Below are positions 25,591 to 41,902 of a DNA stretch of 64,000 bases, piece after piece. Numbering within the stretch: the stretch's first letter is position 1; each line of letters starts with the position of its first letter. The position numbers were made by a program, and so were the translations under genes. The notes below the pieces were generated by a model. It saw only the letters and a program-made list of their open reading frames with translations, was not told the origin of the DNA and ran no database searches. Source of the DNA: Longimicrobiales bacterium (GTDB lineage Bacteria > Gemmatimonadota > Gemmatimonadetes > Longimicrobiales > Gaopeijiaceae); assembly GCA_965116905.1 (NCBI GenBank), contig OZ220732.1:3872001-3936000 (forward strand), in the 5' to 3' direction.

Positions 25591-26295
25591 TCACCAGTCC
25601 ATGGCGTCCGGCTCGGGCTCGTAGATCGCGAACCCCTTGCGGGTGATCAGGAAAGAGCCCGTCAGGACGAGCGCTGCGCCGACCAAAGCACCGCCGATGG
25701 CGATCGCCAGGGTGTGGTCGCTGGCCATGATGGCCTGGATCAACCGCAACGGACCCCCGAAGAGGCGGTCGACGAGGTACCCACCCGCCATGACCGCCCC
25801 CAGAGCAACCATCGCACCATAGGGAACCAGCAGCTTGATCTTGAAGCGAAGCACAAGCGCAAGGAGCACGGCCGACATCACCGAGAGCATGGTCCAGGCT
25901 CCCAGAAAGGCGGCGATGATGATGCGGATCAAGCCCAGGTCTCCCAGAAACGCGGGGCCCACGATACCACCAGCCGCAGCCATCGGCACTGCTCCCAGCG
26001 CCGCAATAAGGACCAGCGCCGTTAGGCGGGCTCCCGCAAGCGTCAAGGGGGTTACGGGGAGTGTGGTGAGCACCTCCAGGTTGCCCGTCATCCTGTCCTG
26101 AAGCGCATCAAACGGTATCTGCATGCCAAGTGCGCCACCAACCGCAGCTAGCCCGAAGCTCAGCACAGACGTTGGGGATTCCACCATGAGCGAGAAGACC
26201 ACAACCGCCAAGAGGAAGACACCAATTCGCACCAAGCCCTGGCGGAAACGTCGCAACTCGAGTCCCACCAGAGTCCAATAGGGTTGATCAGTCAT
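25591..26295 (-). CDS. ABC-2 type permease
   Basis: About 6 TM segments; D...G.LE.L.TLPV motif; start overlaps ATPase stop. Confidence 0.8.
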   Translation of the reverse strand: MTDQPYWTLVGLELRRFRQGLVRIGVFLLAVVVFSLMVESPTSVLSFGLAAVGGALGMQIPFDALQDRMTGNLEVLTTLPVTPLTLAGARLTALVLIAALGAVPMAAAGGIVGPAFLGDLGLIRIIIAAFLGAWTMLSVMSAVLLALVLRFKIKLLVPYGAMVALGAVMAGGYLVDRLFGGPLRLIQAIMASDHTLAIAIGGALVGAALVLTGSFLITRKGFAIYEPEPDAMDW

Positions 26296-27004
26296 CGGAT
26301 TCCAAGGCTGAAATGAGGATTTGCGAGAGGGGAGCACCGGGATCGCGTTCCGCCAGCTCCTTCGTGGTGACGTCTTCGAGGATCCGTCCCTGCCGCATCA
26401 GGATGACGCGCTCGGCAATGAACTCCACGTCTTCGAGGATGTGACTGGAAAAGAGGACGAGACGATCACCGCCCGTGGGTGCGCAATCGCCGATGATCTT
26501 CAGTAACTCGCGGCGCTTGACCGGATCGATGGCCGTGGTGGGCTCGTCGAGTATGAGGACAGGTGGCCGGTGCGCCTCGGCCGTTACCAGAGACAGCTTG
26601 ACCGACATGCCCCTGGAAAGCGTGCCCACCTTCGACGCGCCCGGAAGCTCAAGGCGAGTGAGGAGTTCCTGTTCGTAGTCGCGGTCCCAGGTGGGGAAGA
26701 AGGTCGAGAGGAACCGCAGGTGCTCGTCGATGGTCATCCACCCGAATCCGAGCAGGCGTTCAGGGAGAAACCCGATGCGCGCCCTGACCCCCGGCAACTG
26801 GGCCTTGATGTCGCCTCCGTCCACCTCCACCCGGCCCTCGTATTCCCGAAGCCGACCCGCAATCGCCTTGAGGGTCGTGCTCTTCCCGGCCCCGTTCGCG
26901 CCAACCAACGCAACGCGTTCTCCCGGATCGACGGTCAAGTCCATCGGCTCCAGGAAGAAGTTGGAATACCGGACGCTGAATCCCCGCAGCCTCACCCCCG
27001 CCAT
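26288..27004 (-). CDS. ABC transporter ATP-binding protein
   Basis: GANGAGKST, LSRGM, LILDEPT, SSH; start ATG 27004. Confidence 0.92.
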   Translation of the reverse strand: MAGVRLRGFSVRYSNFFLEPMDLTVDPGERVALVGANGAGKSTTLKAIAGRLREYEGRVEVDGGDIKAQLPGVRARIGFLPERLLGFGWMTIDEHLRFLSTFFPTWDRDYEQELLTRLELPGASKVGTLSRGMSVKLSLVTAEAHRPPVLILDEPTTAIDPVKRRELLKIIGDCAPTGGDRLVLFSSHILEDVEFIAERVILMRQGRILEDVTTKELAERDPGAPLSQILISALESDD

Positions 27005-27048: not shown

Positions 27049-27729
27049 CTACAATGTGACCCATGCTCGCGCTCCTGAAAAGGCCACCATCACGCCCCAG
27101 AAGAAAAGCGCCAGTCCGAGAGACGGCCGGAGCTCGGGGCCGTCGCACCGACGCAGAGCAATCACGAGGAACCCGAACCAGAGGAAATGACCCACCGAAA
27201 AACTCTGGGCGACCGCTAGCAGACCCGGGTTTGTGGCTGGGACGAAGGCAGCCACCCCCAGGTTGGCCTGGAGATCCGCGGGCGAGGTCGGGCTCCCACC
27301 TGTGGCCCAGTGCAGATAGAGGGCCTGCAACACGCCCTGCGCCGCCAAAATGGCCTCTCCATATAGCAATACGGAGAGCATCGGTCGGACGCGCCGCCGC
27401 GAGTTCGCCAGCACAAGCACAGCCCAACCCAGGGCTGTGAGAAGCCCCGCCTTGAGCAGGTGAACCAGGGGCGACATAACCGCTACTACCCCCAGTACAA
27501 AGAGAGTCCCCTGGGCAATCTCCGGTCCCTGGGTTGCCATGGCACTCAATACCAACGGCCGTAGCGAGAACGCCGCTACTACAGAGAACACCCATCCGAT
27601 CACCAGGGGTGGTACGATAGGGCGATGATCGCGAATGTCGTCCAGGCTGGGAACGAGCATGTTAAGAAAGTGCCGCAGCCGTCCCAGTATCCGTTGCATG
27701 CCTCCGGCGGCCCCCTCTTGTCCACTCAT
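27049..27729 (-). CDS. Yip1-like multi-pass membrane protein
   Basis: About 5 TM segments, 226 aa; ATGA overlap with redoxin stop. Confidence 0.6.
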   Translation of the reverse strand: MSGQEGAAGGMQRILGRLRHFLNMLVPSLDDIRDHRPIVPPLVIGWVFSVVAAFSLRPLVLSAMATQGPEIAQGTLFVLGVVAVMSPLVHLLKAGLLTALGWAVLVLANSRRRVRPMLSVLLYGEAILAAQGVLQALYLHWATGGSPTSPADLQANLGVAAFVPATNPGLLAVAQSFSVGHFLWFGFLVIALRRCDGPELRPSLGLALFFWGVMVAFSGARAWVTL

Positions 27730-28268
27730 GACTTGGATTCTCCCATTCCGGTGATTGCCGCGACGTTCTCCGCAAGCATGTTCCTGTTGCTGCGTCCGAC
27801 TCGTATGATCCGGACCGTGTCGGTCTCGTCGACCCAAAAGGTCGCCGGCACCGCGTTGACCCCCAGAGCCCTGCCCACACTTCCGTCTCGGTCGTGTACC
27901 GTCCTGGCGCGAAGCGATGGGGGAACCCACGTCGCGCTTTCCATGACCGACCTGGGAGATGCCACCACCCAGACCGCTACACCGCCCGCGTCACCACCCA
28001 CCACCGACTCCCACAATCCCAACTCCGCCTCGCAATGAACGCACCTGCGATCCACATAGATCAAAGCCGTCGCACCAGCGCCGCTCGCCCGGTATGTCCA
28101 CATCTCCGACTCGCCGATCCAACCCGAGACGGGTGGAAGCACCCAGGGCGGAGCTTCGGGGCCATCCCCTTTCCCGCCCATCCACACAAATGGCATAATC
28201 GCTAGACCCGAAACACAAGCCGCCACCACCAATGCTGCAGTCTTCTGACGTATCGATCGTTGTGGCAT
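27726..28268 (-). CDS. Membrane-anchored thioredoxin-fold redoxin (TlpA-like)
   Basis: N-terminal TM, CVHC motif, GVNAVPAT cis-Pro loop; GGAGG before ATG 28268. Confidence 0.8.
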   Translation of the reverse strand: MPQRSIRQKTAALVVAACVSGLAIMPFVWMGGKGDGPEAPPWVLPPVSGWIGESEMWTYRASGAGATALIYVDRRCVHCEAELGLWESVVGGDAGGVAVWVVASPRSVMESATWVPPSLRARTVHDRDGSVGRALGVNAVPATFWVDETDTVRIIRVGRSNRNMLAENVAAITGMGESKS

Positions 28269-28286
28269 CTCAATGACTCCTCCCAC

Positions 28287-28323
28287 AGGGGGACCCGGAC
28301 GCAGCCGCTGCCCGGGTCCCCCT
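28287..28323. terminator. GC-rich stem-loop between the precursor array and the redoxin gene
   Basis: agggggacccgg / ccgggtccccct, 12-bp perfect inverted repeat with inner gcagc/gctgc; no clear U-tract on the minus strand. Confidence 0.6.
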
Positions 28324-28341
28324 CCGCTTTCCCGTTTTGGC

Positions 28342-28641
28342 CTAGAACGCGACGTAGCAAGTGACTGCGCACCGCACCAGGTCCACAATGTCACTTTGTT
28401 GGCTGGCAGAAACGCCGACAAGGCACCGCACGCACAGTCCCTGCAATATGAACAGCGTTGGGATTGTGCCGATATACTGGCCGCCGATAACGCGCTCGGT
28501 CATCTGTGTCTCGAAGAATGTCTCCATCGAGCCCGTGTCGGAGTTCACACCGTACCCTGCACCTGATCCGCCGCTGGTCGCTAAGACTGCGACGATAGCC
28601 GTCACCCCCAAGCCTCGGACGATCCTGTTTGTTGTCCTCAT
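28342..28641 (-). CDS. Precursor peptide 5 (signal + VIGG + CVRC-X17-CAVTC)
   Basis: 99 aa; shares the architecture of four neighbours. Confidence 0.8.
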   Translation of the reverse strand: MRTTNRIVRGLGVTAIVAVLATSGGSGAGYGVNSDTGSMETFFETQMTERVIGGQYIGTIPTLFILQGLCVRCLVGVSASQQSDIVDLVRCAVTCYVAF

Positions 28642-28680
28642 CTTACCCCCTGTCTTTCTCTACACAAGAAGACCAGATCC

Positions 28681-28974
28681 CTAGAGATCATCTGCAAAGG
28701 CCACGCCGCACAGGAACCCACAACCCATCAAAGCGATGGCGCCTGCTCCACCCGACACAACCGTTGTCGCTAGACCCCCTGCAGCGCATCCTATGCATCC
28801 CAACTTCTTCCACCATCCCTGCCCTTGAATCACGGTTGAAGTCGATGCTGCCACCGAACGCGTTTCCAACGCCACATCCAGTTCGGTACCGCCTCCTGCT
28901 CCTCGCAGTGACCCCGCCATCAGCACCGCGACCATTACGGCTCCCATGAACCGTCTATTCCGTAGTCTCTTCAT
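28681..28974 (-). CDS. Precursor peptide 4 (signal + IQGQG + CIGC-X21-CGFLC)
   Basis: AGGAGG RBS overlapping the upstream stop; ATG 28974. Confidence 0.85.
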   Translation of the reverse strand: MKRLRNRRFMGAVMVAVLMAGSLRGAGGGTELDVALETRSVAASTSTVIQGQGWWKKLGCIGCAAGGLATTVVSGGAGAIALMGCGFLCGVAFADDL

Positions 28975-28984
28975 CGTTTTCCTC

Positions 28985-29281
28985 CTAGAAGTATGTAGCT
29001 TTTGCAAGCTTCCCACATGCAAAACCGCAAGCAATGCCCAGGAAGCCTCCAACGCCAGTTATTGTTACCAGAACGATCGTGCCGGCGATGCACCCCCAGC
29101 ACGCCAGATTGAGGCCCGTGTTCTGAGCGCCCACGACGGTTTCCTCCAACACCATGCTTGTCTCGACCGCTCTGGTACCGTCGACGGCGGCTTGTGCTTG
29201 CCGATTCCCCGCGGTTGTGGCGTTCGCCAGCGCAACCACGGTCAAGACCCGTAGCACTGTTGTAATGCTCGTACTCTTCAT
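28985..29281 (-). CDS. Precursor peptide 3 (signal + VVGA + CWGC-X20-CGFAC)
   Basis: ATG 29281, purine-rich RBS. Confidence 0.85.
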   Translation of the reverse strand: MKSTSITTVLRVLTVVALANATTAGNRQAQAAVDGTRAVETSMVLEETVVGAQNTGLNLACWGCIAGTIVLVTITGVGGFLGIACGFACGKLAKATYF

Positions 29282-29319
29282 TTGCGCCTGCCTTTCCCTT
29301 TTGTCGCCAAGACCGATGA

Positions 29320-29655
29320 TCATCCGAACCCGAGTGTACAGACAAAGGAGCACGCCCCTACAGCAAACGGAGCCACCGACGCCAATGCTATTAGCCCGAG
29401 GATGCTCGCTCCGCCGCCTACTAGAATGGCTCCGGCGCACCCGAGGCAGCCTACCCTGGCAAGTGCCTGTCCGCCTTCGACCGCGGTAGCCTCTCGCTCG
29501 ACGGCCGTTCGAGCAGATCCCTGCACGTGAATGAGGTCCGCTGGCGTAGCCGCCCGCCCGCCGAGCGCATGCGGCTGCATCGAGCCGCTCGCGAGAGCAA
29601 GCAAGATCATCATCGCCGTGCCGACGTGTGCCTGTTTATGCGTTTTCATACTCAT
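29320..29655 (-). CDS. Precursor peptide 2 (signal + TAVEGG + CLGC-X28-CSFVC)
   Basis: GGAG upstream; several nearby Met codons (29667-29649). Confidence 0.85.
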   Translation of the reverse strand: MSMKTHKQAHVGTAMMILLALASGSMQPHALGGRAATPADLIHVQGSARTAVEREATAVEGGQALARVGCLGCAGAILVGGGASILGLIALASVAPFAVGACSFVCTLGFG

Positions 29656-29672
29656 GCTCATCTCCATGTCGA

Positions 29673-29963
29673 TCAGAAGATTGTCTCGTGACACGCGGCC
29701 ACACACCCGGCGAGCGCAACTGTCGAACCGTTTACAGCCATTGCTGCGATGATCCCGCCGGTCTTGACCAGAACGATGCCCGAGACGACGCAACCAAGGC
29801 AGATCGTGAACGCTCCCCATCCCCGACCCTCAACCGCGGTCGGTCCTCCGTCTCCCAACGCGGCGACCGGTGGCCCCCCGGTCAGCTGGGCTCCCTGTGC
29901 CGCGAGCAGCGCAAGGCAGAGCGCGTACACGGTGGCCCGCATTCGTCCTTTCCTCATCATCAT
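29673..29963 (-). CDS. Precursor peptide 1 (signal + TAVEGRG + CLGC-X28-CVAAC)
   Basis: AAGGAGGAGG RBS directly upstream. Confidence 0.85.
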   Translation of the reverse strand: MMMRKGRMRATVYALCLALLAAQGAQLTGGPPVAALGDGGPTAVEGRGWGAFTICLGCVVSGIVLVKTGGIIAAMAVNGSTVALAGCVAACHETIF

Positions 29964-30025: not shown

Positions 30026-30664
30026 CTACGCCGCGAGCACGATCGACTCGCCGGACCAGATCTCCTGGAATGCTTCTTCGCTGATCGAGTAGCGCCCCGC
30101 CGTGGGATCCACCACGGTCAGACGACCGGACGGCGATCGTCCGGTAACCGTCACGAAATGATTCCGGTTCACCCACGCGATGAACGGCGTACGCGCGTCG
30201 CGCAGGTCTGCCCGCGTGAGGCGTACCAGCGTGAGCGGCAGACCGAATCGGCCAGCGGCCCGAATCAGGCCGCCGGCGGTGGTTCCCCTCGGCCCCATGT
30301 CCGCGAGCACGGCGAGCGTGTCCGTCGAAGGGACCTCGACGCCGACCGCGCGCATCATGTTGGCGAGCGCAGCGGGTCCGCAGTCATTCAGGGCGGACTG
30401 GAAGACGACCGAGTCATCTCCCAGAAACTCCGCATTCAGCCTGGCCAGATCGACGCGTGCCGCGAGTCGCCCCATGCGGGGCAGGTCGGAGACTGCAAAC
30501 GCCGCGAGCAAGATCGTCGCGGGCACCAGCACCAGGGTCAGGATCGCTGTGCGGCGGCGATATGCGACGCGGTGCTCCGAGGGTGGTTTCGGACGGCAGG
30601 ACGCTTCGTGCCGGCTTTCAGGCATCCGGGGGACTCCGTTTTCGGTGGGTCGTGACTCAATCAA
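30026..30664 (-). CDS. Stand-alone C39 family cysteine peptidase with N-terminal TM anchor
   Basis: FQSALNDCGPAALA (Q,C), NHFV (H), VVDP..GR (D); start may be ATG 30625. Confidence 0.88.
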   Translation of the reverse strand: MIESRPTENGVPRMPESRHEASCRPKPPSEHRVAYRRRTAILTLVLVPATILLAAFAVSDLPRMGRLAARVDLARLNAEFLGDDSVVFQSALNDCGPAALANMMRAVGVEVPSTDTLAVLADMGPRGTTAGGLIRAAGRFGLPLTLVRLTRADLRDARTPFIAWVNRNHFVTVTGRSPSGRLTVVDPTAGRYSISEEAFQEIWSGESIVLAA

Positions 30665-30882: not shown

Positions 30883-31509
30883 CTACAGCGTCTTCAGGAC
30901 CTCCAGAATGTCCTCGTTGGTGGGCCGCACCCGGTAGTCCACCTCCACGAAGCGGTACCGCACGACGCCTTCCTTGTCGATCACGTAGGTGGCGGGATGC
31001 GGCAGAGGCCGGTTGGGAGGCGCGTTTTCGTTGAACAGGCCGTAGCGGTCGATCACGGCGTGGTCCGGGTCGGAGAGCATGATGAAGTCGGGGGCCATGC
31101 CGTCGCTGGCGGCCACCCGGTCGATCATCAGCTGCATTCCCTCCTCGTCATCCACCGACACCGTCACAATTTCGGTCTGGTCCTTGAGGTCGTCGGGCAA
31201 CAGGGCTCTCAGCTCCACGAGCTGACTGGCGCAGAACGGTCACCAGTGGCCCCGGTAAAAGACGAGCACGACGTTCTTGTCCCCACGGAAGCCCGAGAGC
31301 GCCACAGGGCCGCGGTCGAAGGACTCCAATGTGAACAGCGGCGCTTCGTCCCCGACAGCCACGCGCTCGATGTCGGTGCCCGGCAGGTCGTGACCGTCGG
31401 CCGGACCCAGGTCCTGTGCGCGAGTCGGGGTTGCGGTGGCAACCAGCCCCAGGAGGACCGGCAACGCGGCGAATCGCACGCCAGCCAGAAATCGAGTGGA
31501 TGGGAACAT
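30883..31509 (-). CDS. AhpC/TSA-like redoxin, probable selenoprotein (UxxC), secreted
   Basis: In-frame TGA at 31242-31240 in VFYRGHW-U-PFC joins two track ORFs; signal peptide ending TRA-Q. Confidence 0.85.
31209..31225 (-). promoter_or_regulatory. Candidate bacterial SECIS hairpin
   Basis: UCAGCUC-GUG-GAGCUGA starting 14 nt after the UGA. Confidence 0.55.
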
Positions 31510-31582
31510 GTTTGTGGTCCGTTGCAAAGTGGCGGATTCGGACCGGGTACACGCCCGGTTCCGGGACACCTATGTTAATCGC

Positions 31583-40301: not shown

Positions 40302-40889
40302 CTACCCTTCGTCCGGCTCCGGTGTCACCTCGTCGATTACCGCGGCCAGTTCCTCGTATGCGGCCGGATCGACCTGGTTGAACTGCGGGATCACCTTCGC
40401 CACGCGGCCATCGGGCCCGACCACGATCACGGCGCGGCTCCCGACCATCCCGTTGTCCCGTAGCGATCCGCCGAACGCCATGAAGGCGCCGCCGTCCGGA
40501 TCGCTGCCGAAGAGGTAGGGGAAGTCCTCGTCCTTCAGCCAGGAAGCGCCCTCCTCGGCCGAATCGTTGGAAATCGCCATGAGCACCACGTTGCGGCCTT
40601 CGTTGAACAGTTCTGCGTACTGATCACGGTACGCTCTCATTTGAACCGTTCAGCCACGCGTCCTGACTCTGAAGAAAAACGCCAGGACCACCGTCTCGCC
40701 GCGGTAGTCGCTCAGGCGGACCCGGTCCGAGAGCACTCCGTGACGGGTCGCCCCGGTCAGTTCGAAGTCGGGCGCCATGGCGCCGACCTCGATGAGCCCG
40801 TCGCCCGCCTCCTGGGCCATCGCCCCGCTCGGCGCGCCAAGACCCACCACGGCAGCCAGCCCGGCCACCACCAGCAATCTACGAGTCAT
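40302..40889 (-). CDS. Peroxiredoxin (BCP/AhpC-like), probable selenoprotein (TxxU), secreted
   Basis: In-frame TGA at 40652-40650 in FFFRVRTRG-U-TVQM at the peroxidatic Cys position; signal peptide ending AMA-Q. Confidence 0.85.
40615..40634 (-). promoter_or_regulatory. Candidate bacterial SECIS hairpin
   Basis: GCGUAC-8nt-GUACGC 15 nt after the UGA; lower stem ACGGUUC/GAACUGU. Confidence 0.55.
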
Positions 40890-40907
40890 GCGGCTTCTCC
40901 TTGGGTG

Positions 40908-40957
40908 AGAGTATGTGAGTATGAGTATATGAGTATATGAGTATATGAGTATATGAG
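40908..40957. repeat. AT-rich 8-bp microsatellite (TGAGTATA)4 plus degenerate copies
   Basis: Perfect copies at 40922-40953. Confidence 0.92.
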
Positions 40958-40993
40958 CAGGAATCACTGCCCCACGTGCGATCGCCGTCGCAC

Positions 40994-41902
40994 TCAGTTG
41001 CTGCCCGCGGTCGCAGCCTTGATCGCCTTGACCGTCTGGTCGACCCGGAATCCCAGCAACTTTTTCCCGATATCGATCGTCGCTTCCTTGTCGGCGATGC
41101 TCACCCCGTTGATCGACGCCTTCCCCGCGGCGACCCGCTGCGCGTGGCGGACCGAAGACGGATCCTCGGTCATCATGATCGCGGTGATCACGAAGTCGTC
41201 GTGGAAGCCGTCGTTCGTGGGCTGGACGATCCCGAGCTCGCTCTCCATCCACTCGAAGACCTCGGCGTAGCGATAGAACTCGGGAATGAAGTGGGCGCGC
41301 GCGCTCCCACGCCACTGCTCGTCGAGTTCGGCCGCCACCGCCGCCATGCCGGCCTGGTTGCCCCCGCTGTCGCCGATGAAGACGATGTCGGTGAACCCGT
41401 GGGCGCGCAGGCTGCTCGCCATGTCGTCCAGGACCGCGCGGAACGTCTCCTCCCGCAGGCTGATCGTGCCCGGGTACCGCATGTGGCCCGACGGACTGTC
41501 GATGTCGCCTTCGGGGACGAGCTTGAGAACGGGGGCGCAGAGCGCGTTGCCCAGCTTGCGCGCGATGCCCTCGCAGGCGCCCGTCAGCACGTAGTTGTGC
41601 TTGCCCGTCGCGAGGTAGGGGCCGTTCTGCTCGATCCCGCCCGTCGAGATGATCGCGGTGGTCTTGCCCTCGCGGAGCGCGTCGCGCACCTCCATCCAGG
41701 TGAGTTCCTCGATCCAGACCGAGTTGAGGGCGTCGATCGGACGCTCCATCTGCATGTCGGCCAGGAGCGCTTCCGCCTGCCGCGCGGCCATCGTGGCGCG
41801 CTGCTCCGCGTTCATCGCACGCCGGCCCTGCTGTGCGTCACCGGTCCCCGGCGCGGCCAGCATCATTCCGGCCGCCGCCAGCACCCACCTCCGGTACTTC
41901 AT
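40994..41902 (-). CDS. Creatininase family protein, secreted
   Basis: EELTW.E, GGIEQNGP, PGTISL, GDSGGN. Confidence 0.88.
   Translation of the reverse strand: MKYRRWVLAAAGMMLAAPGTGDAQQGRRAMNAEQRATMAARQAEALLADMQMERPIDALNSVWIEELTWMEVRDALREGKTTAIISTGGIEQNGPYLATGKHNYVLTGACEGIARKLGNALCAPVLKLVPEGDIDSPSGHMRYPGTISLREETFRAVLDDMASSLRAHGFTDIVFIGDSGGNQAGMAAVAAELDEQWRGSARAHFIPEFYRYAEVFEWMESELGIVQPTNDGFHDDFVITAIMMTEDPSSVRHAQRVAAGKASINGVSIADKEATIDIGKKLLGFRVDQTVKAIKAATAGSN

Follow-up and report, generated by a model that had tools for sequence, protein, structure and literature searches.

A candidate operon for bacteriocin-like disulfide peptides with a stand-alone C39 peptidase in a Longimicrobiales bacterium

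Described systems and the operon machinery

Several described systems share elements with the locus analysed in this study. TMcin (tmcABCDEP, Staphylococcus aureus G1905) is made in the membrane, where, according to the cited accounts, its leader is cut, it is oxidised by a DsbA-like protein, escorted, and extracted by an ABC transporter (PMC12328743, PMC13712780). Thermophilin 13, of the class IIb or Blp type, is described as two peptides encoded alongside a C39 peptidase and an oxidoreductase (PMC10059821), and the C39 domains of PCAT proteins are reported to cleave after GG, GA or GS (PMC10885120). FapD is presented as a periplasmic, catalytically required C39 peptidase (PMC5557850), with its substrate noted as undetermined in a second account (PMC6173800). 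A Yip1 protein of Bacillus is credited with aiding SDP resistance together with an ABC pair (YknWXYZ; PMC4887032), and Yip1 proteins are said to turn up repeatedly in the clusters of circular and leaderless bacteriocins (PMC8659200, PMC11580447). Fap and Fil are stand-alone periplasm-type C39 systems that build fibres, not toxins. Class II microcins, which leave by type I secretion, have clusters defined by a PCAT and a membrane-fusion adaptor.

The window analysed here is a stretch of 64,000 nucleotides from a genome of the Longimicrobiales, an order of the Gemmatimonadota. A ten-gene co-oriented operon was found in it, encoding a C39 peptidase, five precursors (P1 to P5), a thioredoxin-fold protein, a Yip1-like protein, an ABC ATPase and a permease, all on the minus strand. 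The stand-alone C39 cysteine peptidase (30026..30625, 199 aa; Pfam PF03412, E 7.6e-23) carries one N-terminal hydrophobic anchor, and its catalytic residues Q76, C82, H156 and D173 are intact and show no change in any of 15 aligned orthologues. The thioredoxin-fold protein (27726..28268) is TlpA/DsbE/ResA-like, with an N-terminal anchor, a CVHC motif, and matches to Pfam Redoxin (E 0.00095) and NCBIfam dsbE (E 8e-05) that both lie below cut-off. A multi-pass membrane protein of 226 aa (27049..27729) is weakly Yip1/YknW-like (NCBIfam YknW, E 0.055), and two of its 14 orthologues match Pfam Yip1, at best with E 0.0061. The ABC ATPase (26288..27004, 238 aa) matches Pfam ABC_tran (E 1.7e-26), with PmtA as its top NCBIfam match (E 2.6e-36, below cut-off), and the hydrophobic permease (25591..26295, 234 aa) has no Pfam or NCBIfam match. 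The permease is the fastest-evolving machinery gene, with 57-79% identity in three close relatives against 87-91% for the C39, Yip1-like and ATPase proteins; mosaicism was considered and rejected, since the permease tree broadly tracks the machinery tree and is merely faster. Neither an outer-membrane channel, an adaptor nor a small immunity gene was found among the operon ORFs, and no receptor or regulator gene is present in the operon.

A G+C-rich RNA hairpin (28286..28327, minus strand) lies between P5 and the thioredoxin gene, with a folding energy of -38.2 kcal/mol and z of -2.67, equalled by 3 of 200 shuffles. A long stem occurs at the equivalent position in several orthologous loci, though not all, as judged there from the stem itself without a shuffle control. 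The hairpin likely raises the ratio of precursor to machinery mRNA.

The operon resembles TMcin, as that system is described, in having a leader protease, a CxxC oxidoreductase, a membrane helper and an ABC ATPase with a permease, a likeness of function class and not of homology; a hydrophobic helix in the mature peptide and a pathway overlooked by mining tools are further likenesses. In the cited accounts, however, TMcin uses the S2P/DUF3267 zinc protease TmcP in place of a C39 cysteine peptidase, and its peptide has one transmembrane helix and a beta-hairpin with one disulfide, whereas the P1 core is modelled, with moderate confidence, as two helices with four Cys. A single precursor and the 2-helix TmcE there stand against 2-6 precursors, a multi-pass Yip1-like helper and a diderm host here. 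By analogy, we infer that the operon holds one gene for each TMcin task, with no families in common beyond the generic ABC and thioredoxin folds. The likeness to class IIb, as reported, lies in paired Gly/Ala-rich hydrophobic peptides, a double-Gly-like site, a C39 domain and a thiol-disulfide oxidoreductase (PMC10059821). Class IIb precursor genes lie side by side and are passed on together, as P1 and P2 are in all intact loci. The short double-glycine leader of class IIb (GG, GA or GS) has a partial counterpart here: V/I-x-G-x is conserved and 72 of 108 precursors have a canonical residue at -1, but the leader is 40-65 aa long and carries a signal-type h-region. The C39 domain, fused there to the ABC exporter as a PCAT, is here a separate protein of 199 aa beside a separate ATPase and permease. 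Two predicted disulfides per peptide and neutral cores also set the operon apart. Because it resembles both TMcin and class IIb but departs from what defines each of them, we regard the operon as a variant of the unmodified disulfide bacteriocin-like RiPP systems.

The remaining systems are alike in single components. Fap, as its sources present it, shares a stand-alone C39 that works beyond the cytoplasm on substrates exported by Sec (PMC5557850, PMC6173800). The FapF-like outer-membrane barrel and Asn/Gln repeats of Fap have no equivalent here, where the substrates are short helical hydrophobic cores, and FapD is soluble whereas the operon C39 has a long anchor. No operon ORF corresponds to a Fap or Fil outer-membrane secretion barrel or repeat fibre subunit, and the FilB model scores 19 bits against a cut-off of 475. 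SDP shares a disulfide peptide of ~42-50 aa cut from a larger precursor and, as described, protection by Yip1 and an ABC pair (PMC4887032). The operon, with four Cys and a C39, lacks a membrane-fusion protein, a MacB-type permease and the Sdp genes, and YknW is matched only at E 0.055. In circular and leaderless clusters, hydrophobic helical peptides, at times in several precursor copies, are described with Yip1-like and ABC genes next to them (PMC8659200, PMC11580447); the operon gives no SpoIIM/DUF95 Pfam match, and adds a signal peptide, a C39 and a disulfide scaffold. Class II microcins differ in that neither PCAT nor membrane-fusion adaptor is present in the operon.

Precursor array, leaders and processing site

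Five tandem precursor ORFs of 94-111 aa, arranged head to tail on the minus strand, bear out the array proposed in the first-pass annotation. P1 (29673..29963, 94-96 aa) has a predicted core of 49 aa at 29676-29822, and P2 (29320..29655, about 111 aa, its start codon uncertain by a few codons) one of 49 aa at 29323-29469, both with the pattern CxxC-28-CxxxC. The three following genes occupy lineage-specific slots: P3 (28985..29281, 98 aa; predicted core 28988-29125, 46 aa, CxxC-20-CxxxC), P4 (28681..28974, 97 aa; predicted core 28684-28818, 45 aa, CxxC-21-CxxxC) and P5 (28342..28641, 99 aa; predicted core 28345-28479, 45 aa, CxxC-17-CxxxC with a polar loop). Each precursor begins with a basic N-terminus and a hydrophobic stretch; a polar spacer then leads to a V/I-x-G-x site, behind which the C-terminal core ends in CxxC...CxxxC. 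Four of the five genes have a clear purine-rich ribosome site. The mechanical ORF list had stretched P2, P3 and P4 to 166, 151 and 123 aa, so the spurious upstream extensions suspected earlier are real. The G+C content drops to 57-59% over P3-P5, between flanks of 65-70%. Among 42,938 six-frame ORFs of the genome, only seven carry a Gly site with a C-terminal CxxC..CxxxC; five of them are P1-P5, so the array is not a product of chance, and this pattern scan found no precursor copies elsewhere in the genome.

The TAVEG motif of P1 and P2, and the CVRC and polar SASQQSD loop of P5, are present as first noted. The cores are 20-39% identical in pairs. The earlier statement that the peptides share little besides Cys spacing, the Gly site and, in P1 and P2, TAVEG overlooked that P1 and P2 are paralogues (HHalign 96.6%, E 6e-10) and that a signal-type leader, with a basic n-region and a hydrophobic h-region, is common to 103 of 108 homologous precursors. 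These 108 remained from a catalogue of 112 homologues after four were dropped, either for absence of the site pattern or for a mis-framed ORF. Four Cys in the pattern occur in 83 of them, two Cys in 22 and three Cys in 3. The expected conservation of Cys in homologues is borne out for those 83 and fails for the two-Cys and three-Cys forms. An invariant scaffold is likewise too strong a term, as the loop between the Cys pairs measures 28, 28, 20, 21 and 17 residues in P1-P5. The cores are near neutral and hydrophobic, with a median net charge of 0 and a GRAVY of 1.3 over the 108 precursors. Most membrane-killing bacteriocins are unlike such near-neutral cores.

An AxA-like site, by a loose pattern, was found in 86 of 108 leaders. 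The processing site has the consensus acidic-V/I-x-G-x, of which positions -4 and -2 are partly imposed by the search pattern; in 105 of the 108 precursors the next residue is G or Q. The -1 residue is a canonical G, A or S in 72 of 108 and R, Q or T in 32; judging from these residues, the latter could be cut one residue earlier, or the C39 specificity could be altered. The Gly processing site assigned in the first-pass annotation is supported by the adjoining intact C39, by its conservation and by a natural variant: in genome G293 (L093:11073-11360), P1 is split precisely at the predicted cleavage site, with a decayed leader ORF ending in IGGR and a leaderless core of 52 aa that has its own ATG and RBS in a stop/start overlap. 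Three further leaderless 52-aa forms of P1 exist (the proteins listed include P0140, P0144 and P0158), and such forms show that the signal is dispensable in some lineages. A Cys of the P1 leader, invariant in 20 of 20 genus P1 proteins, was considered as a lipoprotein signal and rejected, as no consistent lipobox surrounds it and it is lost in distant homologues. In protein P0165, present on three contigs, the C39 and P1 form a single ORF of 310 aa, probably through loss of the C39 stop codon.

No family match was obtained for the precursors in Pfam, NCBIfam, PDB sequences or plasmids. Bacteriocin models matched none of the five window precursors, 20 P1 (Pfam), 20 P2 and 30 distant homologues (NCBIfam), and stray weak matches to BagZ, MxcG and PetJ were dismissed as composition. 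The best ESM Atlas scores, 0.75-0.76, are below the lead threshold, the nearest named cluster being Bacteriocin_IIc at 0.75, a lead only. The full P1 model gave no Foldseek match at E 0.001, and VIA-align of the P1 core gave a best Z of 6.5, to generic helical hairpins. No description of the cluster was found in the main texts of largely open-access full-text literature, and an unnamed "RiPP-like" listing is possible. A sponge BGC survey mentions Gemmatimonadota RiPPs only in general terms (PMC11832590).

Distribution, selection and slot turnover

A C39 orthologue was found in 22 of 53 genus genomes and the Yip1-like gene in 20, all of them C39-positive; the other two C39-positive loci end at contig edges. 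The genus set comprises 20 loci besides the window, with G013 left out as its C39 is cut by the contig end. The order C39, precursors, thioredoxin, Yip1-like, ATPase is kept in 19 of these 20, the last being cut by a contig edge, and in 8 of 8 loci outside the genus; the permease follows the ATPase in 28 of 28. At a threshold of E 0.01, the P1 profile found a match in 27 of the 401 phylum genomes. Eight strong matches lie outside the genus, in five families, and all eight genomes carry the operon, which is thus known from about 30 genomes of the Gemmatimonadota. Whereas genus loci hold 4-6 precursors each, P1 and P2 are the sole precursors in seven of these eight; in the eighth, G293, the split P1 and P2 are joined by two Cys-rich ORFs of no relation to them, short Cys/Trp-rich precursors with a common signal and no Gly site. 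Searched against 1.84 billion representatives, the profile retrieved 113 proteins, which carry no taxon labels, and 108 of them keep CxxC..CxxxC. A scan of 11 metagenome loci showed the system in four, while five held other C39 proteins or were too short, one was a repeat of G041 and one ended within C39. One metagenome locus has an additional precursor-like ORF upstream of the C39 gene (L103:4827-5933). A separate PCAT-sized C39 ORF lies in the same genome outside the window (G000:C1:4045797-4048196), with similar ORFs in many relatives.

P1 occupies the first slot and P2 the second in every array, and the four Cys and the site Gly are invariant in 26 of 26 P1 and 26 of 26 P2. Since the two are the sole precursors in seven of eight outside-genus loci and lead every array, P1 and P2 are the conserved minimal set. 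Slots 3-6 vary by lineage, with four-Cys peptides in one clade and two-Cys peptides in 9 of 20 genus loci, a distribution that matches the machinery tree. Core dN/dS, pooled by the Nei-Gojobori method over short segments of the 4-5 closest genomes without a site test, is 0.72 for P1, 0.33 for P2, 0.12 for P3, 0.29 for P4 and 0.44 for P5, and the P1 signal region, at 0.11, is the most constrained part. Positive selection on the cores was not seen, no core having a dN/dS above 1, and values below 1 indicate that the precursor genes are translated and selected. At 1.0 and 0.9, the dS of the P4 and P5 cores is higher than in the machinery genes (0.28-0.56), which may reflect allele exchange or alignment noise.

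The array had been called hypervariable and read as a diversifying peptide library. Neither description is supported as it stands, since orthologues exist for every slot and their dN/dS stays below 1. The array consists of stable paralogues with orthologues in sister species, its variety coming from gain, loss and replacement in slots 3-6. A distinct role for P5 was also proposed; its class occurs in only 4 of 21 genus loci, the window included, and in one metagenome locus, so that a universal role must be abandoned.

The same AhpC-like and M28 genes flank the operon in all 19 of the other genus loci that are complete. Five C39-negative genomes were checked: the slot is empty, with nearly adjacent flanks, in two, and holds an unrelated peptide cassette in three. 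This alternative cassette lies on the minus strand (L110:821-5187 in G009, L111:602-4797 in G051, L112:651-4256 in G020) and encodes a six-bladed beta-propeller protein (weak DUF5128), an ABC ATPase, a permease and two secreted precursors. The leader of these precursors is conserved and closes with SAQ, their cores contain 4-8 Cys and a PW motif, and no Pfam match was found for them. Close copies of its permease occur in 7 of 53 genus genomes and distant copies in 15 more; the seven are all C39-negative, but they are kin and not independent. With its patchy presence (22 of 53), the empty or exchanged slot and the fast permease, the operon behaves like conflict cargo.

Individual loci show further changes. 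In G064 (L041), P1 is truncated by an insertion with methyltransferase-like, nuclease-like and transposase-like ORFs (named by eye), and in G052 (L038) the thioredoxin gene is spread over two frames, with ~1.5 kb breaking up the Yip1-like gene. A close relative of the locus occurs in a sponge metagenome run, and in a related strain (run X1, record 4, window 29305-29689) 382 divergent bases replace P2 while the flanking genes align at 90% or more. An RNA-labelled sponge run covered 29 of 30 bins including the flanks; we do not count this as transcription because depth is flat, flanks are covered and contigs reach 21 kb, so that DNA carry-over is possible. Two AhpC/TSA-type genes of the window (30883-31569 and 40302-41315, both minus strand) contain an in-frame TGA, at an x-P-F-C (UxxC-like) position in the former, which suggests that both are candidate selenoproteins.

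Proposed maturation and competing readings

The P1 core alone was modelled by AlphaFold2 as two helices, 2-21 and 26-48, with a pLDDT of 72, and the full precursor model also shows a two-helix core. In such an antiparallel hairpin, the CxxC would be set beside the CxxxC at the end bearing both termini, the disulfide pairing itself not being read from the model. Co-folding of the P1 and P2 cores scored 0.02 with the partner fold uncertain, a result that counts neither for nor against a complex. The more positive flank of a membrane helix lies on the cytoplasmic side by the positive-inside rule. The anchor is present in 29 of 29 C39 proteins with its N-side more positive in 27, so the peptidase domain is predicted, by charge counting only, to face the periplasm. 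The CxxC and anchor of the thioredoxin-fold protein are kept in 28 of 28 loci; only 17 of these 28 proteins have the greater positive charge on the N-side, a weak signal for a periplasmic position.

We propose the following route. The basic and hydrophobic leader would send the precursor to Sec and keep it at the inner membrane, where the anchored C39 would cut at V/I-x-G-x, removing leader and spacer. The anchored thioredoxin would make or reshuffle the CxxC-to-CxxxC disulfides, with first-to-fourth and second-to-third pairing predicted; in an antiparallel hairpin these would come to lie at one end, on the membrane side of both enzymes. The Yip1-like protein and the ABC pair would escort and extract the peptides and shield the producer, and the mature peptides would permeabilise target membranes. 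That the operon forms a processed disulfide peptide system is very probable, and a maturation route on the periplasm side is quite likely. To the main reading, a bacteriocin-like, membrane-attacking P1+P2 pair with lineage-specific extra peptides, matured on the periplasmic side of the inner membrane, we assign a probability of about 0.58. A multi-component pore former, as suggested at first, is a plausible candidate reading, with P1 and P2 indicated as the conserved unit. Near-neutral cores, the lack of an outer-membrane exit gene and of a small immunity gene in the operon, and the fibre-building role of Fap and Fil weigh against an antibacterial P1+P2, and the non-canonical -1 residues, the anchor charge of the thioredoxin and the leaderless P1 forms weigh against the maturation route.

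The same maturation could also serve an arsenal in which every peptide is an independent weapon and P1 and P2 co-occur merely by inheritance, a reading nearest to the earlier library idea. Such an arsenal would fit genus loci that carry 4-6 precursors and show turnover in slots 3-6, the raised dS of the P4 and P5 cores, as allele exchange predicts, and the highest core dN/dS in P1. We still consider it unlikely, as P1 and P2 keep their pairing and order throughout five families of the class, no intact locus has just one of them, and no core exceeds a dN/dS of 1. Slightly less likely again are structural subunits, either major/minor pilin-like or forming a membrane ring, retained on the producer after maturation by C39 and thioredoxin and extracted for assembly by the ABC and Yip1-like proteins. 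Neutral, very hydrophobic two-helix cores would suit this, as would the absence of an outer-membrane exporter and an immunity gene from the operon and a hairpin behind the array that fits high subunit output; the periplasmic C39 FapD is described as serving an amyloid fibre (PMC5557850), and the operon C39 scores weakly against the pilus-system FilB (E 0.00067, below cut-off). However, no secretin, outer-membrane barrel or assembly ATPase was found in any locus read, the slot may be empty or swapped for another peptide cassette, and the permease evolves fast.

The topology itself bears on an inside-out route, in which a cytoplasmic C39 would cut the leader, the separate ABC pair would export the cores like a split PCAT, and the hydrophobic leader would be a tether only. 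C39 domains and double-glycine-like sites are normally cytoplasmic according to the cited accounts (PMC10885120, PMC5557850), arginines are also found after the C39 anchor, and leaderless P1 variants exist. The anchor charge in 27 of 29 C39 proteins, the n- and h-regions of 103 of 108 leaders with their loosely defined AxA-like sites in 86, and the resemblance of the ATPase and permease to ABC-2 type exporters and not to PCAT make this route improbable. We give least credence, as a very improbable reading, to signals or host-modulating factors: the near relative of the locus in a sponge metagenome run and the neutral, hydrophobic cores would agree with these, but the operon has neither receptor nor regulator, and four further families of the class have the system as well.

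Beyond the main reading of a membrane-attacking pair, we tentatively put forward, at somewhat less than even odds, a phylum-wide new class of ribosomal peptides of Gram-negative bacteria, matured on the periplasmic side of the inner membrane. It would combine a Sec-type leader, a double-Gly site, an anchored stand-alone C39, a dedicated disulfide catalyst, a Yip1 escort and an ABC extractor to give a two-component pore of neutral, doubly stapled helical hairpins, to which each lineage would add further subunits in the swappable slot. The peptide family spans more than 100 clusters at 50% identity, is nameless in databases, and comes from a phylum with almost no characterised antimicrobials. 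For a C39 peptidase working outside the cytoplasm, its precursors offer the clearest candidate substrates. The minimal two-precursor form comprises seven genes, small enough to be expressed whole, with cores short enough for synthesis. If the main reading is true, membrane-located RiPP maturation, so far represented by the Gram-positive TMcin, would extend to a diderm with unrelated enzymes.
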